From the sequence record PP400779: DNA of 64,000 bases; one strand, 5' to 3'. Shown here piece after piece: positions 1,542 to 50,792 of the stretch. The position numbers were made by a program, and so were the translations under genes. Within the stretch, counting starts at the first letter, position 1. Each line of letters starts with the position of its first letter. Below the pieces are notes generated by a model. That model was not told where the DNA came from. It made no database searches and worked only from the letters and a program-made list of their open reading frames with translations. The stretch comes from Escherichia phage JM17.

Positions 1542-2227
<686 letters not shown>

Positions 2228-2240
2228 TTTTCACAAAACA

Positions 2241-2280
2241 GTTTACATAAGGATGATGGTGTGTTACTATCATCCTATCA
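2241..2280 (+). promoter_or_regulatory. early sigma70-type promoter (GTTTAC -35, TACTAT -10) with GGATGAT/ATCATCC inverted repeat
   Basis: GTTTAC at 2241-2246, about 17-nt spacer, TACTAT; palindrome 2251-2275; upstream of ORF 2305. Confidence 0.5.
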
Positions 2281-2304
2281 AATAAACAACCTCAAGGAAA
2301 TAAA

Positions 2305-2616
2305 ATGAAAACCTATCAAGAATTCATCGCGGAAGCTACTAAAGCAGATAAAAATTTTGTTATTAACACTAACGGCCCGTTAGATGATGAATACGCTAAT
2401 GCTATTATTAAGTCAATTTCTAATCAAGGCGTTGAAGTATCAAATTTCGAATATAAGAAAAATGATACTTATATGGTAATTAGTATCAAAAAAGGTTCAA
2501 AGGCTAAAATTAAATCTGCATTTGGTGTTATGCGAGTCGACCAAATCGATAACCACGATTTTTCACAAACAGGGGTTAAACGCCAAAATACCATTTCTTC
2601 TAAAGGCATAAAATAA
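2305..2616 (+). CDS. internal protein (IP)-like; N-terminal capsid-targeting sequence MKTYQEFIAE
   Basis: 103 aa; first 10 aa equal the T4 IPIII capsid-targeting/prohead-protease leader as recalled. Confidence 0.6.
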   Translation: MKTYQEFIAEATKADKNFVINTNGPLDDEYANAIIKSISNQGVEVSNFEYKKNDTYMVISIKKGSKAKIKSAFGVMRVDQIDNHDFSQTGVKRQNTISSKGIK

Positions 2617-2656
2617 TTTACAACACGATAGGACTATGTTATAGTAGTCCTATCAA
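2617..2656 (+). promoter_or_regulatory. PeSL-like early promoter cassette (TTTACA ... TATAGT inside palindrome ATAGGACTA/TAGTCCTAT)
   Basis: perfect 9-bp inverted repeat flanking the -10 hexamer; the same core recurs near 2955, 8003, 9300, 18835, 57800. Confidence 0.5.
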
Positions 2657-2677
2657 AACAACCAAATGGAACCTAAA

Positions 2678-2941
2678 ATGAAAACTTTCAACGAATTCAT
2701 CTCAGAATCATCTGGTGTGAAAATTAACAAAGCGGTCAATCAGGTTATTGCTGATATTCTTAATTTGTATAACATTGACTTAACTCCGCATATCACGCTT
2801 GGTAACAAACGAAACTTTTTCGTATTTGACACATCCGAACTTGATGAAAATCAGTTCAATAATATTCAACGTTTTGCTAATGATAAAGGTCTTCGACACG
2901 AGCCTGGTGGCTATAAAAAATACGCAATATATTTGAAATAA
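2678..2941 (+). CDS. internal protein-like (leader MKTFNEFISE)
   Basis: CTS-like N-terminus; alternative ATG at 2666. Confidence 0.5.
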   Translation: MKTFNEFISESSGVKINKAVNQVIADILNLYNIDLTPHITLGNKRNFFVFDTSELDENQFNNIQRFANDKGLRHEPGGYKKYAIYLK

Positions 2942-3010
2942 AGGTATACAAGCCTATAGGGATATGTTATAGTAGTCCTATCAAAACAAATGAGTAAATG
3001 GAGAAATAAA

Positions 3011-3196
3011 ATGAAACGCGCTGAACTGATTCGTAATGTTGCTGTAGTAATTGCTTCAATGGCTTTTAGTTTTTCGATGTTTGTAGGATTCATTTGCGGA
3101 CTACTGACAACAACTGAAAATTCTATCTCATTGGTAGTAGCATTTCTAATCGGTTTAATCGCTATCGTTATGGATAAAATTGCAAAAGGCGAGTAA
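3011..3196 (+). CDS. small membrane protein (two predicted TM helices)
   Basis: GGAG 7 nt upstream of ATG 3011; hydrophobic stretches. Confidence 0.4.
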   Translation: MKRAELIRNVAVVIASMAFSFSMFVGFICGLLTTTENSISLVVAFLIGLIAIVMDKIAKGE

Positions 3197-3197
3197 A

Positions 3198-3560
3198 ATG
3201 AAATATCACGTATATGCGGATTTTGAAGCAAATCCTTCTAAAGACCCCGATTGTCGTTTGATACGCAGACCATTTGATTCAGCAGCTCAAGCCTGGGCCT
3301 GGATTAAAACTTGTACTCCTTCTTACACTTTCTTTGAAGTGGTAGACGATAACGGTGTTCTGCATCCAGAACCTACAGAAACTATTAATTTCCTTCTGTT
3401 TGCTGGTTATGACTGTTATCCTCTTGGTGGTATTGACGACCTTGTTGCTACAGGAAAAACTTTTGAAGCTCTTCGCGAAATTTATAAAAACGCGGAAGAA
3501 AATTTTGACTGGTATCATATTGTTGATGCTCATACCTTTGAAATGGTGGAACATTCATGA
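3198..3560 (+). CDS. hypothetical protein
   Basis: ORF with ATG 3198 two nt after the upstream stop; no motif recognised. Confidence 0.4.
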   Translation: MKYHVYADFEANPSKDPDCRLIRRPFDSAAQAWAWIKTCTPSYTFFEVVDDNGVLHPEPTETINFLLFAGYDCYPLGGIDDLVATGKTFEALREIYKNAEENFDWYHIVDAHTFEMVEHS

Positions 3561-3841
3561 TTCTTTATGCTAAAGTATCGTCCATTGAGAACGGATATGA
3601 AAGCGACCAACGTGCAGCTAAAGCACTAGTTAATGACTACGGTATTCTGACTATCTTTGAGGTTGAAAAGGTTTATATCGACCGTTCATCTTCGCAAGTT
3701 AAATTACTCTGTGAAGACGATAAATTTAACACAGTTAACTTTGATTTCTTTATTGAAACAGAAAAAGGCCCTCTTGAATATGACATTTTCAAGAATCCTT
3801 TAGGACTTGATTGCATTCAGAACACATACACAATATGGTGA
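3557..3841 (+). CDS. hypothetical protein
   Basis: ATGA start/stop overlap with upstream ORF. Confidence 0.4.
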   Translation: MILYAKVSSIENGYESDQRAAKALVNDYGILTIFEVEKVYIDRSSSQVKLLCEDDKFNTVNFDFFIETEKGPLEYDIFKNPLGLDCIQNTYTIW

Positions 3842-3962
3842 GAAATCGTTTTGCCAACTGTTAAAATGATTGATTTGCTTTAAGAATTATGTGTTATTAT
3901 TAATTCATACCCTCTATTACCAAAGGTACTCTAAAGTGCCTTTCATAATAGAAAGTTATTTA

Positions 3963-4036
3963 GGCCCTGTAGCTCAATGGTTAGCAGCAGTCCCCTCATA
4001 AGGGAAAGGTTACCAGTTCGAATCTGGTCTGGGTCA
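3963..4036 (+). tRNA. tRNA with anticodon CAU (Met, or Ile2 if lysidine-modified)
   Basis: hand-folded cloverleaf: acceptor GGCCCTG/CTGGGTC (one U-U mismatch), D-loop with GG, anticodon loop CUCAUAA, T-arm ACCAG-TTCGAAT-CTGGT. Confidence 0.6.
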
Positions 4037-4042
4037 TATATT

Positions 4043-4119
4043 CGAGGCATAGCTCAATTGTATAGAGCAACGGATTTCTAATCCGTAGGTTGAAGGTTAG
4101 AATCCTTCTGCCTCGACCA
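4043..4119 (+). tRNA. tRNA-Arg (anticodon UCU), CCA encoded
   Basis: acceptor CGAGGCA/TGCCTCG, D-stem GCTC/GAGC, anticodon stem ACGGA/TCCGT with loop TTTCTAA, T-arm GAAGG-TTAGAAT-CCTTC, discriminator A plus CCA. Confidence 0.85.
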
Positions 4120-4435
4120 AATAAGAAGCCGGGTCGCTACCGGTAAGTCGTCGGACTGATGTTCCCTGAGTAAGGACTGGTCTTAATAAATCTTTACGAT
4201 TTGTTAATATCCCCTTACATCACAGCAGAAACGGCGCACCGAATTATCGATTCGAGGAAATATCTTTGCCGTAAGCCGAGTAGCGTTTTTGACGGAACGT
4301 TCGGATATGGTCGAGATATGGCCTTTTAAAAATATTGAGTAGCGTCAACTGCTTAATAACCGGGTTCGAATCCCGGCGTTTCGTACAAACACTTGCCTTA
4401 GCAGGTGGGACCCCGACAAGGTTGCCGCAAGGCTT
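4120..4435 (+). ncRNA. non-coding region after the tRNAs with tRNA-like T-arm (CCGGG-TTCGAAT-CCCGG at 4360-4376); candidate stable RNA or decayed tRNA
   Basis: no credible ORF; T-loop motif present but no full cloverleaf could be folded by hand. Confidence 0.25.
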
Positions 4436-4466
4436 AGCCCCTTCCTTATGGTTGGGGCTTTTTGGC
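4436..4466 (+). terminator. rho-independent terminator, copy 1 of a hairpin repeated three times
   Basis: CCCCTTCCTTATGGTTGGGGCTTTTTGG. Confidence 0.6.
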
Positions 4467-4508
4467 ATAATAATAAATAGATAAGTTAATTAACTTAGGA
4501 AAAGCAAC

Positions 4509-4973
4509 ATGAAATCATACGCTGAATTTTTGACTGAACAATCTAGTTCAGATGTAAAAGCCGCTGCGATTGCAGCAATTCAAGCAGGTAAATATTCTTA
4601 CAAAGACGCCTCTGATGAAGAACGTTTCCGTTTTATTAGAGATTTTAAAGCCGAAGGTTTTACTAATGCTAATACTGTTAGCCGAGTTTTTAAAAGCCTA
4701 GCTGCATCAGGTGAATTGTTCCAGAAAGCTACAGGTAAAGCACCTGCGCCAAAAGCGGACCCTAAAGCAGCTCAAGAAAAAAATATCGCCAAAGGAATTA
4801 TTTCTAAGTATGAAGCAATTCTTAAAGAGCTTTTAGTAATCAAAACAGAAGGACAGAAACTGGCACGAGCACATAGCTTCAAAGATAATCCTCACGCTCA
4901 TAGCCTTGAGTATGTTGAAGATATCCAAAAACTTATTAAAGACCGTATCTGGTCTGCTAAACAAATTAAATAA
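4509..4973 (+). CDS. internal protein-like basic protein (leader MKSYAEFLTE)
   Basis: 154 aa, Ala/Lys-rich; CTS-like N-terminus. Confidence 0.5.
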   Translation: MKSYAEFLTEQSSSDVKAAAIAAIQAGKYSYKDASDEERFRFIRDFKAEGFTNANTVSRVFKSLAASGELFQKATGKAPAPKADPKAAQEKNIAKGIISKYEAILKELLVIKTEGQKLARAHSFKDNPHAHSLEYVEDIQKLIKDRIWSAKQIK

Positions 4974-4979
4974 TAGAAT

Positions 4980-5010
4980 GCCCCCTTCCTTATGGTTGGG
5001 GCTTTTTGGT
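4980..5010 (+). terminator. rho-independent terminator, copy 2
   Basis: same 28-nt hairpin plus T-run as 4436-4466. Confidence 0.6.
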
Positions 5011-5097
5011 ATCTAGGGCATAAAAATATTTCATAAAGATGTTTACTTCTTCCCTAGATGTGTTACTATAGACCTATAAAAACATGAGGAAAATATT

Positions 5098-5403
5098 ATG
5101 AGTCTTTATACTGAACTGAATAAAAAATCTGAAGAATCTGCTGAAACTATTTTTAAAAACGTGCAAAAGCGTATTTTAGAAAAGATGTATAACACTGCAG
5201 CTAAAGGTGAAAAATCTTGCCGGTTTCCGATTAGGTGTTCTTCAGATTTATGCGCAAATACTATTGAATGGCTGGAAAGTGAAGGTCTTACGGTAGAGAA
5301 AAACCCGGCGACTTCTATTGACAGCGAATCATATATTAGTATTTCTTGGGATAAACCACGTATGAATGAAGGACACTACAAGTTGTTAAGTTGGAAAAAT
5401 TAA
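5098..5403 (+). CDS. hypothetical protein
   Basis: ORF behind a GTTTAC...TACTAT promoter and GAGGAAAA SD. Confidence 0.4.
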   Translation: MSLYTELNKKSEESAETIFKNVQKRILEKMYNTAAKGEKSCRFPIRCSSDLCANTIEWLESEGLTVEKNPATSIDSESYISISWDKPRMNEGHYKLLSWKN

Positions 5404-5471
5404 AAATAATGATGTACAAGCACCAAGGATGGTGATACTATAGACTTATCAACTACAGAGGAGTAAACAAA

Positions 5472-5636
5472 ATGACTACTTTAATTATTTGGTTCGATGA
5501 AAATGAAGAAACATACTGTGTGAATATTGGTGAAAGTCCAATGCCTGAATTTGAATCCTCGGATAAAAACTCTGTTGTATCTTGGGCTGAAGGTTATAAA
5601 GCCGCTAAAGGTGACGTTGAAATAATTTACATCTAA
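5472..5636 (+). CDS. small hypothetical protein (54 aa)
   Basis: not in track (under 60 aa); ATG preceded by AGAGGAG and a TGTACA...TACTAT promoter. Confidence 0.3.
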   Translation: MTTLIIWFDENEETYCVNIGESPMPEFESSDKNSVVSWAEGYKAAKGDVEIIYI

Positions 5637-5683
5637 GTACGTTTATGTTATAGTAATCACATCAAATCAAGAGGAGAAACAAA

Positions 5684-5911
5684 ATGGCTACAGTTAGTAT
5701 TGATGTCGTTGATTATGAATACACTGAAGAAGTTATTCGCAACCGTCACCCTGAAGTTCGTATCGATTCAGTCCAAGATTCCAAGTTTTGGACAACTGAG
5801 CTTAATCTGAGCGGTCCTTATGAAGCTGTTAAGAAGTTCATGGTTGAAGAATACTGCGAAGGCATGCACCCCGAAGACACCAAGTTTTATGTCAATTTGA
5901 TTAAAAAATAA
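5684..5911 (+). CDS. hypothetical protein
   Basis: ORF with SD AGAGGAGAA. Confidence 0.4.
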   Translation: MATVSIDVVDYEYTEEVIRNRHPEVRIDSVQDSKFWTTELNLSGPYEAVKKFMVEEYCEGMHPEDTKFYVNLIKK

Positions 5912-5960
5912 TTTACAAACTCTTGAGAGCAGAGTATAATGCTCTCGTTGGATAATAAAC
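5912..5960 (+). repeat. PeSL-like promoter cassette, copy A of a duplicated ~48-bp element
   Basis: ATTTACAAACTCTTGAGAGCAGAGTATAATGCTCTC...GGATAATAAA; nearly identical copy at 33140-33188. Confidence 0.6.
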
Positions 5961-5981
5961 CACCAATTGAAAGGTAATAAT

Positions 5982-6575
5982 ATGAACACACTGAAGAAAC
6001 TTGTTGAATTCATCCGCACTAAACTGGGTACTGCTATGGCTAAAAATCTGACTGTCGAAGAACAGTATAACGCAGCTGCAGATAAGTTGATCACCCAAAT
6101 CAAAGAACTAAAAACGGCTTCTGTTAAATCTATTAATGAAGAAAAACGTATTCGCGAACTTGTTAATGAAAAGAACAAGCAAGCCGCTTCTAAGGAACGT
6201 GAAATTCGTAAGCTCCTGGCTGAAGGACAAGATGTTACTATGCATGCTAAGCTTGGTCTTCTGTATCGTCGAACCGCCGAACAACTTAATACAAAAGCTG
6301 ACGGGTATGCCGCTATGCGAATTGAAATTGCTCGTAAGGTGGTTGAACTTGATGATGCTCGTCAGAATCTGGCAATCAAACTCGAATACATTCGTGAAAC
6401 TCGAGCAGCCAATGCCCTTGGTATCTCTACGGCTGATGATGTAATTGAAATCGCTGCACTGACTAAGGTTGATATCGAAGACACTCTGACTCGTGTTGAA
6501 ACGTTCAATGGCACTCCAGCCGGCGTCGAAACCACTTCTGCTGATGTACAAGAATATATTAACTCTTTGAAATAA
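5982..6575 (+). CDS. coiled-coil protein, possibly PspA/IM30-like
   Basis: 198 aa, heptad-rich Lys/Glu/Ala composition; GAAAGG SD; family assignment tentative. Confidence 0.35.
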
Positions 6576-6584
6576 AATAATACG

Positions 6585-6608
6585 GAGGACTCCGGTCCTC
6601 CTTTTGGA
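6585..6608 (+). terminator. rho-independent terminator
   Basis: GGAGGAC-TCCG-GTCCTCC followed by TTTTGG. Confidence 0.55.
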
Positions 6609-6624
6609 TAATAAAGGAGTTAAC

Positions 6625-7041
6625 ATGCGAAACCAAAATAATGATATTGACTCAATGTTCGAAGAGTTCCGAGATAAGGTAAATCCACCTACGTCTTTAG
6701 TTGATTCATTACGATATGTTGCAACTGGACGTAAATGGTACTGGTCGTCTTCTTATGAGACCACCGAGAAAACGGCTAGCCATAGCAGAAAATCTTTATT
6801 AGCCCCAGGTATTATGATTCATGATATCGGAGCTATTGCTAAACTAGTTGCAGACCATGATATTAGATTCACTGATTTCGTTGCTCCTACATGGTCTGTT
6901 TGTTGTTTAAACACCGAATTGGAATATATCAGTGAACGTTCAGATGATTACATAGGCTTTAGAGACAAGCTTTTAAGGTCTAACATGTTTTATATTGATA
7001 CAGAAGTTCTAGTCAATAATAAAAATACTACTTCACTTTAA
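6625..7041 (+). CDS. hypothetical protein
   Basis: AAGGAG SD then ATG 6625. Confidence 0.4.
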   Translation: MRNQNNDIDSMFEEFRDKVNPPTSLVDSLRYVATGRKWYWSSSYETTEKTASHSRKSLLAPGIMIHDIGAIAKLVADHDIRFTDFVAPTWSVCCLNTELEYISERSDDYIGFRDKLLRSNMFYIDTEVLVNNKNTTSL

Positions 7042-7192
7042 TCGTCGATTCTGAAACTATGTATGAAGGCAAGCCTTTGCTTAAGAGAGTTGATGCTTTA
7101 AGTGCTATTGATGCGCTTTATGAAACTATGGTTGTTAGTCCTAATTTCACTAACAATTTAATCCTTGAGCAATTTATTAAGGAATGTAGAAA

Positions 7193-7498
7193 ATGAGTAA
7201 GATTATTGAAATTAAAGTACCAGAGTTTAATGATGCCAAATCCGCTTCAGATGCAATTTATAAACTTCTGAATCAAGCTGAACGTATCGAAGAAGAAGCA
7301 ACAAAGATCGCAGACCAATATGCCGTATCATTTTCTGTAGGTGATTATGGTAGCGGTCGTACTTATTATCCTAAGGGTGAAATCGTATCCCAGTGGATGA
7401 AAAATGAAATTGAAAATAATGGTGGCGATGTTAAGCGTGAAGGTGATGGTTACGTTATTACTGAAGGTGCTTGGGTTTCGTCTTCTGCGTTGTGCTAA
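7193..7498 (+). CDS. small protein, member 1 of tandem family ending GAWVSSSALC
   Basis: 101 aa; C-terminal G-W-V-S/A-S-S-x-x-C shared with the next two ORFs. Confidence 0.45.
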   Translation: MSKIIEIKVPEFNDAKSASDAIYKLLNQAERIEEEATKIADQYAVSFSVGDYGSGRTYYPKGEIVSQWMKNEIENNGGDVKREGDGYVITEGAWVSSSALC

Positions 7499-7507
7499 GG
7501 AATCATT

Positions 7508-7780
7508 ATGTCTAAAGAACAAACCGAACTGGCTGAAGCTGTAGCAAAAATCTATGCAGCTATTGAGGCTGCCAAAGAAATTGCTGATAAACAAAACACA
7601 ACATTCGATTTGTACCCAGCTTATGGTATGGGTGGAACCTATCATTCACCAGGACATCTTAAAGCCGATCTTGAACGTTGTACAAAAAACGGCTATGCTG
7701 AATGGGCTGACGTTTACCAATACGACTACAACCTGAGCCTCGAAACTGGTGGTTGGGTCGCATCTTCTCACACTTGCTAA
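7508..7780 (+). CDS. small protein, member 2 of tandem family ending GGWVASSHTC
   Basis: 90 aa; AAGGAA SD; conserved C-terminal motif. Confidence 0.45.
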   Translation: MSKEQTELAEAVAKIYAAIEAAKEIADKQNTTFDLYPAYGMGGTYHSPGHLKADLERCTKNGYAEWADVYQYDYNLSLETGGWVASSHTC

Positions 7781-7789
7781 GGAAACAAT

Positions 7790-7987
7790 ATGTCTCGTGA
7801 ATTAGATTGTGCTGTACGTACGGCAGTAGCTGCCCTGGAAAACCTGTTCCAAATTGCAACAGAAGAACGCGAAGAAGTTACATTATGGATTGAAGATAAC
7901 GCAGGTCTGAATCTCCAGAACGCAATCTCATTATCAAATAATAGTATTACTGTTCAAGGCTGGGTATCATCTAGTTATTCTTGCTAA
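7790..7987 (+). CDS. small protein, member 3 of tandem family ending QGWVSSSYSC
   Basis: 65 aa; AAGGAAA SD; conserved C-terminal motif. Confidence 0.45.
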   Translation: MSRELDCAVRTAVAALENLFQIATEEREEVTLWIEDNAGLNLQNAISLSNNSITVQGWVSSSYSC

Positions 7988-8049
7988 AACAGTTTACAAC
8001 AAGATAGGGCTATGTTATAGTAGTCCTATCAAATTAAATGGAGTCCACA

Positions 8050-8289
8050 ATGATTTATTACGAAAGTATTGGAACCAAAGTGGTTGCTAAAACTATTACT
8101 CGTGAAAAGTTTGCAAAGATATTCGATATGCGTTATAAAAAATCTGAACACAAAGGCATCCGATTCGAAGATGCGCACTGTACAATTTGCCCTTATAATG
8201 AAGACATAAACGGTACAATCGTTCCATTGGTAGAAGCTTCACATGATGACCTCTGGGATGAATATAATATCGCATGTCGTGAAATTTAA
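8050..8289 (+). CDS. hypothetical protein
   Basis: ATG 8050 after GGAG (alternative ATG 8038); Cys/His pairs present. Confidence 0.35.
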   Translation: MIYYESIGTKVVAKTITREKFAKIFDMRYKKSEHKGIRFEDAHCTICPYNEDINGTIVPLVEASHDDLWDEYNIACREI

Positions 8290-8317
8290 GTTAATGAATT
8301 AATCCGAGGAAAATATT

Positions 8318-9274
8318 ATGATGTTAGTTATTGGTTCTCGTGCACTTCACTATCACGGTCTTATTGATTCTAGCGCTATCAAAAATAGTGATTGGGACTT
8401 TATTGCGGACCAAGGTTCTTGGAATGCATTCAAAAATCAAATGATGGGTGTATATGTCCACCAAGATAACCCTGATGTCCAAGTTTTCAAATGCTTCCAT
8501 AATGGACGCGAAACTCATTTTGAAGCATATATTGTTCCGGCAATCACTAATGTCCGTGAATTAGTCGGTGAACTCACTCCTGAAGATTTCACGTCTTCTT
8601 ATGACCTTTTAAAATACGCCAAGAAAAATTTGACTAAAGACTGTTTGAACGGGTTTTACTGGGCAACTCCTGAGATATGTCTTGCAATTAAGATGTCTCA
8701 TCGTTTCAAGAAAAATAATCCATTCTTTTTAAAGACTATGAACCATATTCAGTATCTTCGTGGTAAAGGTGTTACACTGAACGATGAACTTACTGAAATT
8801 ATGCTGAAACGCCAGAAAGAAACCTTGAACTATGCTCACCCGGTTCTTGACACTTCTAAAAGTGCGTTCTTTAAAGATGACATCTATACATATGACCATG
8901 ATACTATTCATGAAGCCATTGCACTAACAGACCGTCCAGCGTATACATTTTATATGAAAGACGGTTCTGAAGTCATGACCTCACGAGAGAAGTTCGAATC
9001 GTTACCAGAAATGGTCAAATTGGCCGGTGTATATGAAGAATCATGTGTACTAGCATTAGAACGTTCTCAGATTCCTAATGACTTTAAAATTAACCCTGAA
9101 GCCAGTTTCATGATGGCATTGGAAAAGGTCTGTACAAGCATCACCTCCGGTTGGTTCCGTGAATACGCCTGGGAAAGCTACAGCAAAGTAGTAAGTATGT
9201 ACCAAAGTTTAGGACATGACGATTACGTCAAACGTTTCAAACAAAATTTCCATATGGTAAAACCTTTCAAATAA
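8318..9274 (+). CDS. hypothetical protein with nucleotidyltransferase-fold-like N-terminal motif
   Basis: 318 aa; VIGSRALHYHGL...SDWDF resembles the GS...DxD minimal NTase signature. Confidence 0.4.
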   Translation: MMLVIGSRALHYHGLIDSSAIKNSDWDFIADQGSWNAFKNQMMGVYVHQDNPDVQVFKCFHNGRETHFEAYIVPAITNVRELVGELTPEDFTSSYDLLKYAKKNLTKDCLNGFYWATPEICLAIKMSHRFKKNNPFFLKTMNHIQYLRGKGVTLNDELTEIMLKRQKETLNYAHPVLDTSKSAFFKDDIYTYDHDTIHEAIALTDRPAYTFYMKDGSEVMTSREKFESLPEMVKLAGVYEESCVLALERSQIPNDFKINPEASFMMALEKVCTSITSGWFREYAWESYSKVVSMYQSLGHDDYVKRFKQNFHMVKPFK

Positions 9275-9344
9275 TTTCGCAAAACTGTTTACACAATTAT
9301 AGGACTATGTTATAGTAGTCCTATTAAAACATGAGGAGAATATT

Positions 9345-9650
9345 ATGAAATTAGGCGAAACCAATCGAATCGGTCTTTTTACAATATTTGCATCACCTTT
9401 TTACGTAGCTCTTTCTGTTGCAGTATTACAAAAGGCTTACAGTATGGATGGTGTTCCTGGTTTTGTATTCTTATCACCGTTTTTATTATTCGTCGGAGCT
9501 TTGTTATTATATGCCACGACTAGTTTCGACCATAACGTTTGGGTTAATTATAAATGTAAATTGTCTGAAGAAGAACACGCAGAAGCTCGTAAAAAAGCTA
9601 TTGAATCTACCAATCTAGAAAATTTCATTAAAGAATGCCGAGGAAAATAA
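9345..9650 (+). CDS. small membrane protein
   Basis: two hydrophobic helices. Confidence 0.4.
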   Translation: MKLGETNRIGLFTIFASPFYVALSVAVLQKAYSMDGVPGFVFLSPFLLFVGALLLYATTSFDHNVWVNYKCKLSEEEHAEARKKAIESTNLENFIKECRGK

Positions 9651-9651
9651 T

Positions 9652-10338
9652 ATGAATAGTTCTAAAGTGTTTAATAGTCAAGCTCGTGCAGTAGGTGGTT
9701 TTGCTCATGCGATTAAAAACGACCAGATTAAAAACGAGCCTATGTTCTTTAACTGCGATTTGAATTTTGCTTTTGATAATGGCGGTCCAATTACTCGTAG
9801 CTTTATCCAAAATCTCCCTGACGATTGGAAAGACTCGGATGTAGTATTTGATTCACGAGTCCACATGCTGATGCCTGGTTGGTACCCTGCTATCCCAGGT
9901 TATCACCATGACGATGTACCACGCCCGGATATTCCGGTTGGTCAACACTTTATTACTGCAGGACAACCTGACTATGACAATCCTCGCTATTTGTCTGAAC
10001 ATATTCTTGGTCTTGTTAACGCTGATGTGTGTCCTACTCATTTTGCAACAGGAACTGCAGAGTTCAGTCAGATTCCTGATGGTGAACTTATCTATCGCCA
10101 GTGGCACAAAGAAGTCCTCGAAAAAATCGAAAAAGGCGAACTAGAGAAATGGGAAGCTCCAGATCGTACTCTTCTTCAGTTTGATTGGCAAACATGGCAC
10201 ACTGGTTCTCGTGCAATTAGTAACGGATGGCGTTGGTTCGGACGTGTATCTCGTAATACAGACCGAGTTAAAAAGATTACCAATGAAATTCGTGTCAATG
10301 CCCAAGTTTATCTGGAATTCCCTATGGAAGGCTGGTAA
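9652..10338 (+). CDS. hypothetical protein
   Basis: 228 aa; no motif recognised. Confidence 0.45.
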   Translation: MNSSKVFNSQARAVGGFAHAIKNDQIKNEPMFFNCDLNFAFDNGGPITRSFIQNLPDDWKDSDVVFDSRVHMLMPGWYPAIPGYHHDDVPRPDIPVGQHFITAGQPDYDNPRYLSEHILGLVNADVCPTHFATGTAEFSQIPDGELIYRQWHKEVLEKIEKGELEKWEAPDRTLLQFDWQTWHTGSRAISNGWRWFGRVSRNTDRVKKITNEIRVNAQVYLEFPMEGW

Positions 10339-10829
10339 TGATTAACAAAACATATTGGTCTAATATAGACGATGGCAACGAAGGTATTTCGTATTATTCA
10401 GTAGATTGGACAGGATGTCCATCCTACTTAGTGAAACATATTTGCCAAGAATTTAAAATCAACCAGCCAGCAGGTATTATCGTGAACAGATACATTAATG
10501 GATATCAACCTATCGATGAAGTAATACGAACAACTCAAGCTGAGCTTGAAAAGTTTTTCAATAAGTGCCAATGGATAACAGGATGGATTATATTTGTACC
10601 GTCAGTGTGGTTTTTTAGTACTAAAGTAAGTGCCTTTGCTATACTAGATATTATCGCTATCTTATTAGCATCTACTATCGTAAGTATAATTGGCGGTATA
10701 ATTGGTGGAGGTACTGTAGGCATCATTATTAATCTTGTTAAAAGTAGTTTACAAGAACGTAAAGACAAGATAAAGGCCAAGAATAATGAAGTTGAACGTT
10801 TTATTACCGAATGCAGGAATTTGAGATGA
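10338..10829 (+). CDS. membrane protein with glycine-zipper helix (IIGGIIGGGTVGIII)
   Basis: 163 aa; ATGA overlap with upstream ORF. Confidence 0.45.
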   Translation: MINKTYWSNIDDGNEGISYYSVDWTGCPSYLVKHICQEFKINQPAGIIVNRYINGYQPIDEVIRTTQAELEKFFNKCQWITGWIIFVPSVWFFSTKVSAFAILDIIAILLASTIVSIIGGIIGGGTVGIIINLVKSSLQERKDKIKAKNNEVERFITECRNLR

Positions 10830-11062
10830 GTATAGCAATTTACATTAAATCAGAATCATGTGATAGTTATCTGTACACATACGATAAAGATGTGTCAGAA
10901 GAAAAAATCAAAGACGATCTTAATATGGACCTTGATATGTTCTGTCCTATTGCAGATTACAAACTTGCGGTCTCTAATAGTGAAAGTCCATCTAAAGAAA
11001 CGCGCATTGAAGAATTTATATCTGAACTAATGGCCAAATCATGGGACCGAGATGATGAGTAA
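10826..11062 (+). CDS. hypothetical acidic protein
   Basis: ATGA overlap with upstream ORF. Confidence 0.4.
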   Translation: MSIAIYIKSESCDSYLYTYDKDVSEEKIKDDLNMDLDMFCPIADYKLAVSNSESPSKETRIEEFISELMAKSWDRDDE

Positions 11063-11510
11063 GAAAAATAAAGTGAAAGAACTATCAGCCGGTATTATTT
11101 TCCTTACCGAAGATAAAGAATTATTCATGGGGCGTGTAACTGGTTCTCGTCATAAAGGTGCATTAGCTCATCGGTGGGATATTCCTAAAGGCCGTGTCGA
11201 ACCTGGCGAATCTCCTATTGAAGCCGCTATTCGTGAATGCGAAGAAGAAACTGGGTTTACACAATATGACCCTGCCTTCCTGAAAGACCTAGGTGAACAT
11301 CATTACTCAGACAATAAGAATATTCATCTGTTCCTATATACCATCCCTGTAGAGCACGAGCAATTCAGAAACAGTGTTTGTAATTCCTATCATACATTCC
11401 CAGACGGACGACAGATTCCTGAATTTGATGCATTCGCTTTAATTAAACCTTCTCAATGGGAATATGTAATGGGCAAATCATTATATAAGGTGCTCACTAC
11501 CCTCCTATAA
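11052..11510 (+). CDS. nudE: Nudix hydrolase (T4 NudE-like)
   Basis: Nudix box GRVEPGESPIEAAIRECEEETG; located next to lysozyme gene e. Confidence 0.8.
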   Translation: MMSKKNKVKELSAGIIFLTEDKELFMGRVTGSRHKGALAHRWDIPKGRVEPGESPIEAAIRECEEETGFTQYDPAFLKDLGEHHYSDNKNIHLFLYTIPVEHEQFRNSVCNSYHTFPDGRQIPEFDAFALIKPSQWEYVMGKSLYKVLTTLL

Positions 11511-11512
11511 GT

Positions 11513-11544
11513 AATAAATACCTCCTATAAACGTGGGAGGTATT
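11513..11544 (+). promoter_or_regulatory. RBS-sequestering hairpin with embedded late-promoter-like AATAAATA upstream of gene e
   Basis: stem TACCTCC (11519-11525) / GGAGGTA (11536-11542) contains the SD GGAGG; ATG at 11545. Confidence 0.5.
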
Positions 11545-12033
11545 ATGAATATATTTGAAATGCTTCGTAATGACGAAGGTCTTAGACTGACTTTATACAA
11601 AGACACTGAAGGCTTTTGGACGATTGGCATAGGCCATTTGGTAACAAAGAACCCGTCTTTAGCCATAGCTAAAGCTGAACTTGACAGAATTATCGGACGT
11701 AAATGCAACGGTACAATTACCCTTGATGAGGCTGAAAAGCTATTTAATGAAGACGTTGATAAAGCCGTTCGCGGAATCTTGGGTAATGCTAAACTTAAAC
11801 CGGTATATGATTCTTTAGATGCGGTTCGTCGATGTGCATTGGTCAATATGGTCTTCCAAATGGGTGTAGCAGGCGTCGCCGGTTTTACTAATTCTCTTCG
11901 TATGCTTCAACAGAAACGTTGGGACGAAGCGGCAGTAAATCTAGCCCAATCTAAATGGTATCGTCAGACACCTAATCGCGCGAAACGCGTAATCTCAACA
12001 TTTAAAACAGGAACTTGGAAAGCGTATATATGA
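11545..12033 (+). CDS. e: lysozyme (endolysin, T4 gene e)
   Basis: [32 protein letters not shown]... near-identical to T4 lysozyme as recalled; catalytic E11/D20/T26 context present. Confidence 0.95.
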
Positions 12034-12311
12034 AAACATACAATGAATTTTTATCAGAATCTATTCTTAACGAAGCTACTGACACATTTGCAACTAAGCT
12101 AGGTGCAGCTTTGGTTGAAGCCGAAAGTCTATTAGCACGTATTTCTGAACTTGCTAGTAAGATAGATACTCGCAAATTTGAACGTACCAGCGATATCGCT
12201 AAGCTTGAAGCCTTGTTACGTATGTGCGATAAACCGGAAGAAATCGCTAAGAACGGCTCGCTGATGAAACAACGTCTTGAAAAATATATTTCAGGCGCTT
12301 CAGAAAAATAG
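12030..12311 (+). CDS. internal protein-like (leader [10 protein letters not shown])
   Basis: CTS-like N-terminus; ATGA overlap with the e stop codon. Confidence 0.5.
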
Positions 12312-12313
12312 TT

Positions 12314-12370
12314 GTTTACTTCCTCCAAGGGTTTTGATACTATACATTCATCAACTACTTGGAGGAAATT
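12314..12370 (+). promoter_or_regulatory. PeSL-like promoter: GTTTAC, TACTAT, arms TTCCTCCAAG / CTTGGAGGAA (anti-SD / SD)
   Basis: left arm lies in the promoter spacer; right arm carries the SD before ATG 12371. Confidence 0.5.
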
Positions 12371-12480
12371 ATGACCCGTCCGAAGCGTCCATTGCGATAA
12401 ATCAAGCACGCTTAGATGAAAAAATTGCTCAACGTCCGACTTGGTACAAATACTTTGGTAAATCAATTTACTAAGGAAAA

Positions 12481-12741
12481 ATGAAAATGTATCAAGAATT
12501 TATCGTTGAAGCAGATGCCAAAGGTCCTAAATTTAAAGTTAAAGCTTTCATTGGTGATGCGGAAGACTTTGGCTCATTAAAACGTAATGGGTATTCTTTC
12601 TTAGGTGGCAATGGTAAAGAAATCAACACCTATGCAAAACGTAGTGAAATTGCTTATGTTGTAGCAAGTCCTAAAGTAGATGTTGACGATATTGGATACG
12701 ATTTTAACAACTTCGGAATTATTTCTGGCGGTAAAGCTTAA
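12481..12741 (+). CDS. internal protein-like (leader MKMYQEFIVE)
   Basis: CTS-like N-terminus; AAGGAAAA SD. Confidence 0.5.
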   Translation: MKMYQEFIVEADAKGPKFKVKAFIGDAEDFGSLKRNGYSFLGGNGKEINTYAKRSEIAYVVASPKVDVDDIGYDFNNFGIISGGKA

Positions 12742-12806
12742 ATTGTTTACGCTTAAGTATTAATATGGTATATAATTACTCTATCAAAACAAACAAGGAA
12801 ACAAAA

Positions 12807-13109
12807 ATGAAAACATATCAAGAATTTATTACTGAAGCGCGAGTGAGTGCAGGTAAATTAGAAGCCGCTATAAATAAAAAGGCCCATTCATTTCATGATT
12901 TGTCCGATAAAGACCGTAAGAAACTTGTAAGCCTTTATATTGACAAAGAGCGTATTCTCGCTCTTCCTGGCGCTAATGAAGGTAAACAGGCCAAGCCTTT
13001 GAATGCTGTCGAAAAGAAAATTGATAACTTTGCTTCTAAATTCGGTATGTCTATGGATGACCTTCAGCAAGCGGCTATCGAAGCAGCTAAAGTAATTAAA
13101 GGTAAATAA
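12807..13109 (+). CDS. internal protein-like (leader MKTYQEFITE)
   Basis: CTS-like N-terminus; GTTTAC...TATAAT promoter and AAGGAAAC SD upstream. Confidence 0.55.
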   Translation: MKTYQEFITEARVSAGKLEAAINKKAHSFHDLSDKDRKKLVSLYIDKERILALPGANEGKQAKPLNAVEKKIDNFASKFGMSMDDLQQAAIEAAKVIKGK

Positions 13110-13220
13110 CAGTTTACTTCTCCTAGAATTGTGATAGTATATTCATAATTCTAGGAGGGGTAAATACAGAAATGGACAATTCATGTGCCACGGAATGGCC
13201 CAACATAAAAGAGAAACTAA

Positions 13221-13760
13221 ATGAGAACATTTTTAACTGGACCTTATCTATCCCTGATGAATGCTTTTACACACCATTCTGATGCTAGAGTAGAAGAAAT
13301 TTGTAAGAACGGTTACGTCCCACCATTTGAAGACGTACTCAAGCAGTACTGTACACTTCGTTTAGACGGCGGCAGACAATCAGGTAAATCGACCGCAGTA
13401 ACTAATTTTGCTGTTAATTGGCTGTATGATGGTGGAACAGTTATTGTTCTTTCTAATACTTCAGCTTATGCTAAAATTTCTGCTGGCAACATTAAAAAAG
13501 AATTTTCTCGTTATTCTAGCGATGATATTCGATTCCGTTTATTTACTGATTCTGTTCGTAGTTTTATTGGCAATGAAGGTTCTAAATTCCGTGGATTAAC
13601 GCTTTCTCGTATTCTGTACATAATTGACGAGCCTATTAAAGCTCCTGATATGGATAAGATTTACAATGTCCATATTAAAACAGTCCAACACTGTTGCAAA
13701 AGCAAATATTGCATCGGCGGTATTGCTCGTCCTCAATTTTTTGTGATTGGAATGCAATGA
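13221..13760 (+). CDS. P-loop NTPase, function unknown
   Basis: Walker A GGRQSGKST, Walker B-like ILYIIDEP; start uncertain because a 36-aa ORF (13172-13282) with a strong SD overlaps. Confidence 0.4.
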   Translation: MRTFLTGPYLSLMNAFTHHSDARVEEICKNGYVPPFEDVLKQYCTLRLDGGRQSGKSTAVTNFAVNWLYDGGTVIVLSNTSAYAKISAGNIKKEFSRYSSDDIRFRLFTDSVRSFIGNEGSKFRGLTLSRILYIIDEPIKAPDMDKIYNVHIKTVQHCCKSKYCIGGIARPQFFVIGMQ

Positions 13761-14065
13761 TGACCACTATTGAAGTTTTTGAGTATTGTTATAACAGCCC
13801 AGTATGCAATAAAAGGGCTCTTGTAGAAAATTATGAGATTTACCATTTTAAACCTAAACGATATCGTTTGACTAAAGGACCGTTCGCAGGGCAGCAGGTT
13901 CTTTGTACTGCTCCTAATGCACGGTTGATGACTAGTATTCCGCATTTCAAAATGGAATTTATTGATGGGCCATTTAAGGGATTAATCACTCAAAGTTTAA
14001 TGGCGTTTAATTCCGACCCATTTTTGATTAAAGAAAAAACTTGGATAAATTTATTTTCTAATTGA
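13757..14065 (+). CDS. hypothetical protein
   Basis: ATGA overlap with upstream ORF. Confidence 0.4.
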   Translation: MMTTIEVFEYCYNSPVCNKRALVENYEIYHFKPKRYRLTKGPFAGQQVLCTAPNARLMTSIPHFKMEFIDGPFKGLITQSLMAFNSDPFLIKEKTWINLFSN

Positions 14066-14071
14066 GGTTAT

Positions 14072-14434
14072 ATGAAAGCATATCAAATTCTTGAAGGTGC
14101 ACATAAAGGCACTATTTATTTTGAAGACGGTACTCAAGCCCGGATTATTGTCTCTAAGACTTTTAAAGAAGACTCTATTGTAGACCCGGAAATTTTCTAC
14201 GGTTTGAAGGCCCGTGAAATTGAAATTGAACATCAACCTAAAGTTAAAATTGAAGGTGGTCAACATCTGAACGTTAACGTTCTGCGTCGTGAAACTCTGG
14301 AAGATGCAGTTAAGCATCCGGAAAAATATCCGCAGCTGACCATCCGTGTATCTGGTTATGCAGTTCGCTTTAACTCTCTGACTCCGGAACAGCAGCGCGA
14401 CGTTATCGCTCGTACCTTTACTGAGAGTCTATAA
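14072..14434 (+). CDS. glycyl-radical cofactor protein (GrcA/YfiD-like C-terminal module) with phage-specific N-terminus
   Basis: C-terminal ~60 aa ([63 protein letters not shown]) match E. coli GrcA as recalled, glycyl radical motif RVSGY; codon usage in this segment is host-like. Confidence 0.7.
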
Positions 14435-14658
14435 TGGCTAAATTGATTATAGAAGGGTCTGAAGATGTTTTAAAATGTTTTGCCGCCTGGTTTAGTTGCT
14501 CAGGCGAGCAATCATTCACTGAAACATTTAGAATGGGTGATATTACTGGAAACTATCCGACAACTGATATCACTGTACGTGGATATGGTATTAATGAGCC
14601 TATCCAATTGGTCGAATATGACCTTGCCACTGATGAGGAAATTCCTTATGTCGATTGA
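14434..14658 (+). CDS. hypothetical protein
   Basis: TAATG overlap with upstream ORF. Confidence 0.4.
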   Translation: MAKLIIEGSEDVLKCFAAWFSCSGEQSFTETFRMGDITGNYPTTDITVRGYGINEPIQLVEYDLATDEEIPYVD

Positions 14659-45707: not shown

Positions 45708-46343
45708 ATGAAAACTACTCCTATTACTATCGCTATTGACGCAATCATAAAACAAGCTTCTTCTTTGGCCGCTATGGCCAAAGTAATTAGTCAAAACCCT
45801 GCTCGTTATAATGCTATTCTAGAAACTCTTCGACGCCCTGGACTTAGTAATTATGAAAGCCGGGTAATTATTACAGGTGTTGGTAAGAATGCTAATATCG
45901 CAACTAAAGCTTCCGAGACATTTGCTTCACTAGGTATTCCTAGCATGTATTTGAACACTGGGCATTATTCTCACGGTGATGCAGGATTCATTGCGCCTAA
46001 TGATGTGTTGATTCATATTAGTCGTTCTGGTAAGACTGAAGAAATGATAGGTGTTGCTAAACATCTTCGTATGATTCGTCCTCAGGTTAAACAGATTCTG
46101 TTACATTGTAACCCAGACATTCCACAAGAATACGAAGCTCTTTTTGATTATACGTTCTGTACTGGCATCGCGGTAGAGGTTGATGAGAATTCTCTGGCTC
46201 CGACTATGTCCACTACATTGTTGTTAGCGCTTATCGATACGTTTGCTATCAACCTTTCGTCTGAACGTGGATTTACCTCTAATGATTTCCTTAAGTTCCA
46301 TCCAGGCGGTGCACTAGGTGCCATGTTACGAGGCGAACAATGA
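45708..46343 (+). CDS. SIS-domain sugar-phosphate isomerase (KdsD/KpsF/GmhA-like)
   Basis: 211 aa; SIS motifs ITGVGKNANIATK and ISRSGKTEE. Confidence 0.55.
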   Translation: MKTTPITIAIDAIIKQASSLAAMAKVISQNPARYNAILETLRRPGLSNYESRVIITGVGKNANIATKASETFASLGIPSMYLNTGHYSHGDAGFIAPNDVLIHISRSGKTEEMIGVAKHLRMIRPQVKQILLHCNPDIPQEYEALFDYTFCTGIAVEVDENSLAPTMSTTLLLALIDTFAINLSSERGFTSNDFLKFHPGGALGAMLRGEQ

Positions 46344-46483
46344 AAGCAATAACAATAGGACTTTTACTATTGATGCTTGTCATGACTATCTACTGGAGCT
46401 TAACGGCTCCGGTAATGATTCCAACACTTGTAATTGGATGGATTATGATTGGACTACAAGCAAAGTATGAATGCTTTAACTAG
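46340..46483 (+). CDS. small hydrophobic membrane peptide (47 aa)
   Basis: ATGA overlap with the SIS gene stop; not in track. Confidence 0.3.
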   Translation: MKAITIGLLLLMLVMTIYWSLTAPVMIPTLVIGWIMIGLQAKYECFN

Positions 46484-46524
46484 AATAGTGTACAATACTC
46501 CTACTTACCAATGAGGACTTTAAC

Positions 46525-48210
46525 ATGAAAAAAGCTGTTATTCTTGGTGCTGGACTGGCAACTCGTTTGTATCCAATAACGCATCATATTCCTAAGGTGC
46601 TTGTTAACTATAAACAAGATACTATTCTGAGCAATTTGTATACAATTTATTCTGACCTTGGCGCAGATGAAATTATTGTAGTAGTTCATTCAAAATTTGC
46701 TGAAACTGTTCGAGCTTATTGTGAACAAGAAGGGTTCAATGTGACTATTCGTACAGTTGATGAAGCGTATGGTTCTGCTTATGCTCTTGCTAAATTACAC
46801 AAAGATTTAGACGGCCATAATGTAATTGTTAACTGGTGTGATATTATTCCTGATTTTGGTTCATGGTCTTGGAATGTTAACGCAATCTATGTTAAGGGTG
46901 ACGAATGTCGATATAATTTCGACGGTGAAAATATCACTAACGTAGGTTCAACAGGTGGTAATGTTGTAGGAATTTATCAGTTCAAAGACTGGGAATTCTA
47001 TATGGGTTCTACTGATGAGGAAATTCATGAATACTGCAAAGGACGTGATTTCGTAGAATTCCTTTACGGCAGCGCATTCAATAAATCAGAGCTTATGAAT
47101 CTAATTGATTTAGGTGATATGCCTAAACTTGAAAAAGCTCATGAAGTTCGTGAACTTAATCGTAGTTTTAATGCAGTTGAAATTGGTGAAGAAACTGTAA
47201 CTAAATTCGCATTAACCGAACAGGGTCGAGCTCTTCAGAAAGATGAGATTTCGTGGTATCTTAAAGTGAAATCAGATTCAGTTCCTCAGTTAGTTTCTGT
47301 TAATGAAAATAACTTTGAAATGGAACGCATTAAAGGTAAGCCTGCATTTGAATATATTAAATCCAAATCAAGTCTTGCTCGTCCACAAATTGTTGATGCA
47401 ATTTTAGATGCACTGAAATTCAGCACAGACACTTATTTTGTAAGTCCTGAAACTGTTCGTCGTGATTTCACTAAAGAATTCTATACGAAAGTTATTGATC
47501 GTTGTGAAAGCATTCAACCATTGATTGATTCATTTGGTAAAATCACACATGTGAACTACACTAAGATTGGACGTCTGAAGCCAATGCTGAAACAAGCTTT
47601 AGAACACCTCATTCGTTATCATAACCGTTCTCAGGGACAGTACTCTGTTATTCACGGTGACCCGAACTTCAGTAATACTATGATTACTGATAATGGCGAA
47701 GTCAAGTTTATCGACCCTCGTGGATATTTTGGTGAAACCAAGATTTACGGGCCAAAATTGTACGATGAAGCTAAAGTGCTTTACGCTGTTTCAGGTTATG
47801 ATGAATTCAATGCTAATCCGACTTGGGGACAGTTTACTATTGATGAAACAACTTGTAATGTGACTATTAACATCAATCCATTAGTTTACAAATATGGAAA
47901 GATGAGTTCGTTTAACGAGTATCATCATTTGGCAGTGGCAATTATCTGGATTGCATTAGGTGGTTATTTCAAGAATAATCCACTTAAAGCGGTAGCCGCA
48001 TATTATAAAGGTATGGAACTTCTGACTAAGCAATTACGTAACATGGGCCGTGTACTTCAGGACGGCTCTATTAGTTATGACGTAGCAGAACCTGTAACGG
48101 CTACTCTGATTACAAAAAATCCTGGTAAATGGGTACTAACTGATAAAGAAACTGGTGTTTCCTATCGTCCAATCGGTGGCGATATCACTCATCAATGGGA
48201 ACGAATTTGA
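46525..48210 (+). CDS. bifunctional sugar-1-phosphate nucleotidyltransferase / sugar kinase (N-terminal NDP-sugar pyrophosphorylase, C-terminal APH/choline-kinase-like kinase)
   Basis: 561 aa; N-terminal GAGLATRLYP..PK signature; C-terminal Brenner motif HGDPNFSNTMITDNGEVKFIDPRGYFG. Confidence 0.6.
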   Translation: MKKAVILGAGLATRLYPITHHIPKVLVNYKQDTILSNLYTIYSDLGADEIIVVVHSKFAETVRAYCEQEGFNVTIRTVDEAYGSAYALAKLHKDLDGHNVIVNWCDIIPDFGSWSWNVNAIYVKGDECRYNFDGENITNVGSTGGNVVGIYQFKDWEFYMGSTDEEIHEYCKGRDFVEFLYGSAFNKSELMNLIDLGDMPKLEKAHEVRELNRSFNAVEIGEETVTKFALTEQGRALQKDEISWYLKVKSDSVPQLVSVNENNFEMERIKGKPAFEYIKSKSSLARPQIVDAILDALKFSTDTYFVSPETVRRDFTKEFYTKVIDRCESIQPLIDSFGKITHVNYTKIGRLKPMLKQALEHLIRYHNRSQGQYSVIHGDPNFSNTMITDNGEVKFIDPRGYFGETKIYGPKLYDEAKVLYAVSGYDEFNANPTWGQFTIDETTCNVTININPLVYKYGKMSSFNEYHHLAVAIIWIALGGYFKNNPLKAVAAYYKGMELLTKQLRNMGRVLQDGSISYDVAEPVTATLITKNPGKWVLTDKETGVSYRPIGGDITHQWERI

Positions 48211-48956
48211 TACATTATCTCTACAAAACTACTAATCTTATAAACGGTAAAGTTTATTTAGGAATGCACTCGGCTGAAGAAGCCGAGCCTTTAGATTTAT
48301 ATAAAGGTTCTGGTAAATTATATAAAAAGGCTGAAAGGAAATATGGGAAGGAAAATTTTCTTAAAGAAATCATTTCCTACCATAGCTCAAGAGAAGAATT
48401 AAAAATAGCTGAAAAGGCTCTAATAACATTAGACATAGTTAAAGACCCAAATTATTACAATCTTAAAACTGGTGGCGAAGGTGGTTCTGACGGGTTATCC
48501 CAAAGGTCCAAGGATAAAATTTCTAAGGCAAATAAAGGACGTTTAGTTGGTGATAAAAACCCAAGATGGGGTAAAACTTTGTCAGCTGAATCTATAGCTA
48601 GGGGTAAAGAAAAGCACAGGAGGTATGGTAAACCTGCATTACATGGTCTAAAGATTAATGTAGATGGCAAATATTATGAATCCTGTCGGGAAGCGGCTAA
48701 AGATTTAGGTATATCTTCTGCCACGATTCAAAAGAGAGTAAAATCGCCTAAATATCTTAATTATCGGTATCAGGACGAAAGCAAAAATGCTCACAAGTCT
48801 CAAAAATTTGTTAAAATAAACGAAAATTACTATGAATCTCTTAGGATAGCTGAAAAGAAAACGGGTATTCCTAGAAAGCGTATAGCTGATAATATTAAAA
48901 ATTCTATTGAAGGATATTGCTATGAAACCATTACATCTTTGCGTGGACGTCGATGA
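48195..48956 (+). mobile_element. GIY-YIG homing endonuclease gene (Seg-like)
   Basis: IHYLYKTTNLINGKVYLGMHS; NUMOD3-like repeats; overlaps both neighbours (16 nt upstream, 35 nt downstream). Confidence 0.55.
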
Positions 48957-49296
48957 TTGTATAACAGAGTGGAATAACAATCGTGATTACGTGAACTTCA
49001 AACCAGACGTCGAAATGGTGTCTGCCATTAATGCCCTGTATGATGCAGGGCATACAATAACGCTTTACACTGCTCGAGGTATGAAGTCAGTAGGTCCTGG
49101 TCGTATAGCAATTGACATTCTCCCAAGTCTGATTCAGAACTTGGCAAACATTGGCTTGAAGTACCATAATTTGCTAACACATAAACCAGTATATGATTGG
49201 ATTATCGACGACAAAGCTATGCGTCCTGACGAATTCAAAGCTCTTATGAATAAAGGCGAATTCGAAACATTTAAATCATATAAACCGAATCTATAA
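48922..49296 (+). CDS. HAD-superfamily phosphatase (KdsC-like small sugar-phosphate phosphatase)
   Basis: motif I LHLCVDVDDCIT, motif II TLYTARG, Lys in THKP, motif IV WIIDD. Confidence 0.55.
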   Translation: MKPLHLCVDVDDCITEWNNNRDYVNFKPDVEMVSAINALYDAGHTITLYTARGMKSVGPGRIAIDILPSLIQNLANIGLKYHNLLTHKPVYDWIIDDKAMRPDEFKALMNKGEFETFKSYKPNL

Positions 49297-50750: not shown

Positions 50751-50792
50751 GCTTTACGAATTGAGTATATAATAAATTGTATTGAGGTAAAC

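Follow-up and report, generated by a model that had tools for sequence, protein, structure and literature searches.

The question raised by Escherichia phage JM17 (sequence record PP400779), of which one stretch of 64,000 nucleotides (the window) was analysed, is what is encoded by six open reading frames (ORFs) that begin with nearly the same ten residues and have little else in common. In an earlier note on this DNA they had been read as T4-type internal proteins (Ips), each consisting of a capsid-targeting sequence (CTS) as leader and a diverse part that is possibly an injected anti-defence effector, and this core reading was supported wherever it was testable. The six ip genes of this RB69-like T-even phage very probably encode CTS-bearing precursors that are packaged, cleaved and injected to act on host nucleases, and the genes themselves are very probably exchanged as cassettes. 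By every feature that can be tested on the sequence, the six ORFs class as ordinary members of the hypervariable T4-type internal protein family. The basis for this assignment is the presence of the CTS determinants in all six ORFs, the full-length matches of four of them to PHROG families, the identity of the ORF at 12807 as an IpII orthologue and the presence of the gp21 and gp22 genes in the related phage mogra.

A six-frame scan of the 64 kb with MKTYQEFIAE, allowing up to 4 substitutions, was found to give six matches, all on the plus strand, at 2305, 2678, 4509, 12030, 12481 and 12807 (A to F below, in this order), which are the positions named in the earlier note, and the ends of the ORFs were found to agree as well. 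The leader-bearing ORFs were 86-154 amino acids (aa) long, and their leaders contained the common pattern MK[TSM][YF]xEF[IL]xE. Looser patterns such as MK.[YFW].EF detected no further leader elsewhere in the 64 kb, and the pattern MK.[YFW].EF[ILVM].E was found to give 0 matches over 200 shuffles of the window as against exactly six real ones, so that the set of leaders is far beyond chance. In T4 IPIII, according to PMC9026906, the first 10 residues suffice for packaging, also of foreign proteins (Mullaney & Black 1996, cited there), residues 4 and 7 act in capsid targeting, residues 8 and 10 act in cleavage by the gp21 protease, and this protease cuts after the Glu of an L/I-x-E motif. All six leaders were found to have Y or F as residue 4 and Phe as residue 7, followed by the gp21 motif (L/I)-x-E at residues 8-10 (IAE, ISE, LTE, LSE, IVE and ITE from A to F) and by A, S or Q as the next residue. 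The genes of the gp21 protease and the gp22 scaffold are located outside the 64-kb window and were read instead in mogra, a 97%-identical relative, which was found to encode Peptidase_S77 (gp21, E=3e-107) and the T4_CASP scaffold (gp22, E=2e-89).

The conservation of the leader was followed in 138 leader ORFs gathered from the 57B- and e-flanking regions of about 40 T4-like genomes (IMG/VR contigs). All 138 were found to lie on the strand of the flanking genes. Position 8 was occupied by I, L or M in 88 of the 92 distinct leaders and position 10 by E in 83 of them, positions 8 and 10 having played no part in the selection of the ORFs. A degenerate DNA pattern of the leader, searched over IMG/VR, was too unspecific to count leader genes, mostly unrelated contigs being found among the matches listed.

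The statement of the earlier note that the six proteins diverge completely after the leader was borne out. In BLASTP comparisons of the six proteins with one another and with the three T4 IPs, essentially the leaders and a few following residues were aligned, with the exception of F and IpII, and the longest pairwise match among the six extended over 65 residues with 28% identity (E=0.001, A against E). Distant homology of A and E, which had come into consideration as phrog_2667 matches both, was rejected on a leader-stripped profile comparison that gave a probability of 0.6%. The 138 sampled ORFs were found to form 28 payload clusters, among which leader-stripped profile-profile comparison gave no convincing link, the best pair (53% probability) not being two proteins of the window. 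Four of the six proteins (A, B, D and F) gave full-length matches to PHROG families that bear the name of internal head protein or internal virion protein. The predicted mature proteins contained 76-144 aa; their isoelectric point (pI) was 8.2-9.7 except in D, where it was 6.3, and the T4 IPs were found to be similar. At least 28 payload families are present in this modest sample of about 40 genomes, a number above the 'at least 10' of the literature. At least 10 Ips are said to have been reported by Repoila in 1994, to whom the series Ip4-Ip13 is credited.

The exchange of whole genes was seen in their positions and in their upstream regions. The Ip7 family, to which A belongs, was found after 57B here and after e in six other sampled phages, and other phages were found to contain three further leader-bearing payload families at positions downstream of 57B. 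At the junction with the stop codon of e, seven different payload families were found to start at the same position, D being the one present here, and the site of C is occupied in RB69 by ORF149c, which contains the leader with a different payload. The ip genes behave as exchangeable cassettes, and their three sites follow 57B, the tRNA genes and e. Two Ip loci are counted by Silas et al. (PMC12373910), and the position of C, after the tRNA genes, would be a third cassette site beyond these two.

PeSL elements, which consist of an early promoter and a stem-loop with the consensus TTTACW-N17-TAYWAT, have already been tied to the shuffling of IP genes (Arbiol 2010; Comeau 2014; PMC4122927). Such an element, promoter and stem-loop included, was found for A and B, in the form TTTACA-N17-TAnnAT with the -10 box in a hairpin of 11-12 bp, and the element of F was weak or altered. 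No PeSL-type element was found before C, D and E; D is instead coupled to the lysozyme gene e, its ATG overlapping the e stop codon (ATGA). T4 ipI, ipII and ipIII were found to contain the same layout of promoter and hairpin, the stem sequences varying between genes with the pairing kept. The hairpin may act as a terminator of upstream transcription, as an operator or as a recombination site. In a three-way alignment the ipIII cassette was found to be absent from the window in comparison with mogra (12741-12830), and the crossover was placed inside ATGAAAAC, where the leader starts; ipII is accordingly driven by an ipIII-type promoter. A TA insertion (2 bp, compared with mogra) stretches the spacer of this promoter from 17 to 19 nt. 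The ipIII-less junction was found to be common to 65 phage records, and the 311-base stretch around it (12650-12960) was 100% identical to Escherichia phage FL18. The first reading of the missing ipIII as a deletion was dropped because the junction recurs in these records, which leaves either a loss here or a gain in mogra.

From these features the following course of events may be proposed. Each gene would give rise to a precursor with its first 10 residues as the CTS, as can be read directly from the sequence. The aromatic residue 4 and Phe 7 would direct this precursor to the assembling prohead and into its gp22 scaffolding core, as the genetics of T4 IPIII suggests, and gp21, whose motif is present, would cut after Glu10 to give mature proteins of 8-16 kDa, mostly basic, that would be kept with the DNA. 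The mature proteins would then enter the host together with the DNA and act there within the first minute, as pre-made inhibitors of those host nucleases for which hypermodified phage DNA is the substrate. The shared leader, together with the promoter and stem-loop for some of the genes, would serve as the recombination joint through which payloads replace one another. Each of the T4 proteins Ip1, Ip2 and Ip3 inhibits a GmrSD type IV restriction enzyme of its own, and the same has been proposed for the other Ips (Silas 2025, PMC12373910). The target of T4 Ip2 is the GmrSD of E. coli ECOR21, which is of the BrxU type (PMC12373910). Growth on ECOR17 requires ipIII, and IPIII made in the host is active even if it has no CTS (PMC9391042). 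With 93% identity to T4 IpII over 100 aa (BLASTP), F would most likely inhibit a BrxU-type GmrSD. The likeliest targets of A to E would be further variants of type IV restriction enzymes, which may include some that recognise the arabinosylated cytosine of this phage.

Several points weigh against this proposal. The proteins ip4-10, ip7 included, gave no reproducible inhibition of 15 GmrSD groups (PMC12373910, Supplementary Fig. 9), so that the role of GmrSD inhibitor is not simply extendable to A to E. The window was also found to contain an arabinosylation cluster, which in RB69 makes arabinosylated 5-hydroxycytosine DNA (PMC13326640); its presence implies that the DNA of this phage probably carries arabosyl-5-hydroxycytosine and not the glucosyl-hydroxymethylcytosine of T4, and the known targets of the Ips may not apply to such DNA. 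Packaging, cleavage and injection of these six proteins are predicted from the T4 example. In the 200 bases before each of the six genes, the exact late promoter TATAAATA was not found, and variants with one mismatch were found before C, E and F only; a source of enough protein during prohead assembly is therefore not apparent from the sequence. The promoter-like element of F, with its non-optimal spacer of 19 nt, was not called by a standard promoter scan. Structure prediction of the payloads, which the earlier note had recommended, did produce models for A and C, and these were found to be of generic fold and to give no functional clue. A literature search found no Mosigvirus virion proteome; for Ip7, Ip8 and Ip9 it returned unrelated papers only, and Petrov 2010 contained no discussion of internal proteins. 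It may tentatively be suggested, with somewhat less than an even chance of being right, that C is truly packaged at a third ip locus and that the orphan Ips A to E counter defence systems that recognise arabinosylated DNA, or first-response defences other than GmrSD; if A to E were aimed in this way, the negative results of ip4-10 in GmrSD panels challenged with T2, T4 and T6 would be explained.

The six proteins could also be packaged and yet be chiefly structural, small basic proteins that neutralise or condense the head DNA or aid the morphogenesis of core and head and that take no part in anti-defence. Such a role is considered improbable. It agrees with the basic character of five of the six predicted mature proteins, with the about 1000 internal protein molecules that are embedded in the DNA of a T4 head (PMC3012670) and with the larger number of polyheads in IPIII-minus and triple-IP mutants, which suggests a role in morphogenesis (PMC9026906), but it predicts neither 28 unrelated payload families swapped among close relatives nor the presence or absence of ipIII between 97%-identical phages. 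Moreover, D is not basic, all three T4 IPs have specific restriction-enzyme targets, and IPIII is active without its CTS in the host (PMC12373910, PMC9391042).

The codons of the sampled leaders bear on the second alternative. Thr3 was found to be encoded by ACT, ACA, ACC and ACG, that is by all four codons, and I/L8 by six codons, so that it is the amino acid, not the DNA, that is constrained, and Glu10 was kept in 103 of the 112 distinct leader DNAs. It is accordingly most improbable that the shared 5′ end is kept mainly as DNA, as a module for translation initiation or recombination, with some of the proteins (especially C, D or E) being cytoplasmic and never packaged: the similarity of A, B and F does run upstream of the ATG into the 5′ untranslated region (5′UTR) and the promoter with its stem-loop, the recombination junctions do fall at the leader, PeSL elements have been proposed to mediate shuffling (PMC4122927), and C bears no internal-protein annotation in the records examined, whereas C, D and E keep the leader peptide without any shared upstream DNA and ten residues package foreign proteins in T4 (PMC9026906). 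The internal-protein reading was retained for all six genes, whose coordinates are given with those of the other features in Table 1.

Table 1. Coordinates of the six leader-bearing genes, their promoter elements and further features in the window (mature sizes and pI values are predicted for cleavage after the leader)
Feature	Coordinates	Strand	Description
A, Ip7 family	2305..2616	+	Leader MKTYQEFIAE; mature 93 aa, pI 9.5; phrog_2667 'internal head protein' E=7e-39
B, Ip9 family	2678..2941	+	Leader MKTFNEFISE; mature 77 aa, pI 9.0; phrog_7673 'internal head protein' E=5e-49
C	4509..4973	+	Leader MKSYAEFLTE; 154 aa, mature 144 aa, pI 9.6; phrog_2280 'unknown function' E=1e-53
D	12030..12311	+	Second LNE site at residues 13-15; mature 83 aa, pI 6.3; phrog_3499 'internal head protein' E=2e-46
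E	12481..12741	+	Leader MKMYQEFIVE; mature 76 aa, pI 8.2; phrog_35655 E=3e-26, phrog_2667 E=7e-21
F, T4 ipII orthologue	12807..13109	+	Leader MKTYQEFITE; mature 90 aa, pI 9.7; phrog_7857 'internal virion protein' E=5e-55
Promoter of A, early-type TTTACA-N17-TACTAT	2242..2270	+	-10 box inside 12-bp hairpin, -16.6 kcal/mol; PeSL-type
Promoter of B, early-type TTTACA-N17-TATAGT	2617..2645	+	-10 box inside 11-bp hairpin; PeSL-type
Promoter-like element of F, TTTACG ... TATAAT	12746..12776	+	mogra ipIII-type promoter and 5′UTR joined to ipII coding sequence
denV remnant, about the last 65 codons of endonuclease V	12277..12474	+	Between D and E; not an internal protein
RB69-type cytosine arabinosylation cluster	45708-52958		SIS isomerase 45708, NTP-transferase/kinase 46525, U32-like protein 49354, thymidylate-synthase homologue 50793, two downstream ORFs

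In comparison with the T4 internal proteins, the six were found to contain a 10-residue leader with the same functional residues and the same gp21 motif, to fall within the same range of size and charge, and to occupy the same two loci adjoining 57B and e, with F as a true orthologue of IpII. A to E are without a T4 counterpart, the window contains neither ipI nor ipIII, and six genes are present as against three in T4, with an extra locus after the tRNA genes. The family had been described as expanded, which holds relative to T4 and does not hold relative to the two other Mosigvirus genomes examined, RB69 (at least 6 leader ORFs) and mogra (7). The polymorphic T-even Ip repertoire (Ip4-Ip13 of Repoila, ip4-10 of Silas) is likewise made up of cassettes of a leader and an unrelated payload and includes A as Ip7 and B as Ip9, whereas C (phrog_2280) is without an Ip name in the records examined. 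P1 DarA/DarB and the early-expressed analogue T7 Ocr are similar in that the anti-restriction activity is already present at the entry of DNA, but they are unrelated proteins with another packaging route and without similarity of sequence or fold.

The idea of an injected Ip family is established knowledge, and the earlier reading agrees with published work (Repoila 1994; Silas 2025), in which the leader, the unrelated payloads, the hypervariable loci and the anti-restriction proposal have been in print since 1994 and the function was substantiated in 2025. The label of internal head protein is already present in some public records for five of the six genes, the exception being C. As the family and its principle are established, the window adds mainly catalogue detail, and the novelty is small: the C family and the site after the tRNA genes within the same system, the at least 28 families and the ipIII indel with its joint in the leader. 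The Ip complement of FL18-like Mosigvirus is found to consist of Ip7, Ip9, the unnamed family of C, two further families and IpII, without IpI and IpIII. Since internal proteins are in the cell as soon as the DNA is, ahead of all phage gene expression, they help to decide the range of wild hosts open to a therapeutic T-even phage. In practice, five orphan and putatively injected proteins of an arabinosyl-DNA phage are available as a reasonable starting set for experiments, together with the evidence for a third cassette site and for a gain or loss of ipIII with its junction inside the leader.

Among the individual genes, homologues of A were found to bear the names 'Ip7 protein' or 'internal head protein 7'. 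The AlphaFold2 (AF2) model of A contained a ferredoxin-like beta-alpha-beta-beta-alpha-beta core with a pLDDT of about 90, followed by a C-terminal tail that was disordered though strongly conserved. In spite of its predicted disorder this tail, DNHDFSQTGVKRQNTISSKGIK at residues 82-103, was nearly invariant in Ip7 homologues of 64-72% identity, and it may be a motif that binds the target or DNA. A fold search with the model of A returned hundreds of generic ferredoxin-like ACT, HMA and RRM domains at Z of about 7, and no known anti-restriction protein was matched. For B, the relative mogra_129 is annotated 'Ip9 putative internal head protein'. An in-frame ATG at 2666, four codons before B (MEPKMKTF...), is used as the start in some records, such as the 91-aa form of FL18. 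In the alignment, the other ip genes have their Shine-Dalgarno sequence AAGGAA where this ATG stands, and the ATG is therefore probably a mutated ribosome-binding site (AAGGAA to ATGGAA) and not the true start.

C was found in 511 phage records, and among the 40 listed the annotation was 'hypothetical protein' wherever one was present (a few contained none); the named members of its protein cluster were all hypothetical or uncharacterised. Homologues of C with 74-79% identity keep the leader, for example as MKSYAQFLNE. The AF2 model of C (pLDDT 71) contained a three-helix N-terminal domain, followed by a Pro/Ala/Lys linker and a helical hairpin, and its comparison with PDB folds gave no match with E<1. 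The genes of tRNA-Met and tRNA-Arg lie upstream of C, at a distance of about 390 bases. Just upstream of the start of C (4430-4508), a terminator-like structure was found, made up of a GC-rich hairpin and the T run after it (GCCCC...GGGGCTTTTT), and beyond this structure, 37 bases before the start of C, the sequence AATAAATA was present, one mismatch from the T4 late promoter. The counterpart position in T4, after tRNA-Arg, contains the small RNAs rnaC and rnaD.

The relative of D in mogra, mogra_153, is annotated 'putative internal head protein'. E was found in 217 phage records, and among the 40 listed some contained the annotation 'internal head protein' and most 'hypothetical'; the E protein was 100% identical to that of FL18. 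In a protein collection clustered at 90% identity, E was placed together with endonuclease V proteins of 137 aa (the representative and many members), to which its sequence is unrelated, and this clustering is probably an artefact that has to do with the neighbouring denV gene. When the sequences of C and F were searched against the PDB, no match had an E-value under 0.2, and for the six proteins NCBIfam gave 0 matches and Pfam sub-threshold noise only.

The window was assigned from its sequence to an RB69-like Mosigvirus. The region 2200-14500 was matched by more than 1000 T-even phage records, the best being Escherichia phages JM10, mogra and FL18 with 97-99.6% identity; mogra is classified as Mosigvirus (RB69 group), and the window was found to be collinear with it over the full length. 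The genes stand in the reverse of their T4 order (1, 57A, 57B, ip genes, trna.4-.2, tRNAs, e.x genes, nudE, e, ip genes, vs.8, vs.7, vs.6), with A and B following 57B, C following the tRNA genes and D, E and F following e. The ORF at 14072 (14072-14434), to which a weaker resemblance to the leader had been ascribed, is a real ORF and has only MK-Y-Q in common with the leader. It was rejected as an internal protein, being 94% identical to T4 vs.6 with a Gly_radical domain (E=2e-18). Its N-terminus, MKAYQILE, contained Y4, whereas L7, E8 and A10 depart from three of the four leader determinants. The similarity identifies this ORF as the vs.6 orthologue, an autonomous glycyl-radical protein of the GrcA-like kind, and its likeness to the leader is superficial.

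At the denV locus, about 298 bp of the mogra denV were found to be missing from the window. The end of the translation of 12277-12474 probably corresponds to the C-terminus of T4 EndoV. With about 65 codons of denV left and about 298 bp gone, this phage probably lacks a working pyrimidine-dimer glycosylase (UV repair). A homing-endonuclease-like ORF (48195-48956), absent at that position in mogra, was found to be inserted within the arabinosylation cluster and to contain I-TevI-type DNA-binding, NUMOD1 and NUMOD3 motifs.

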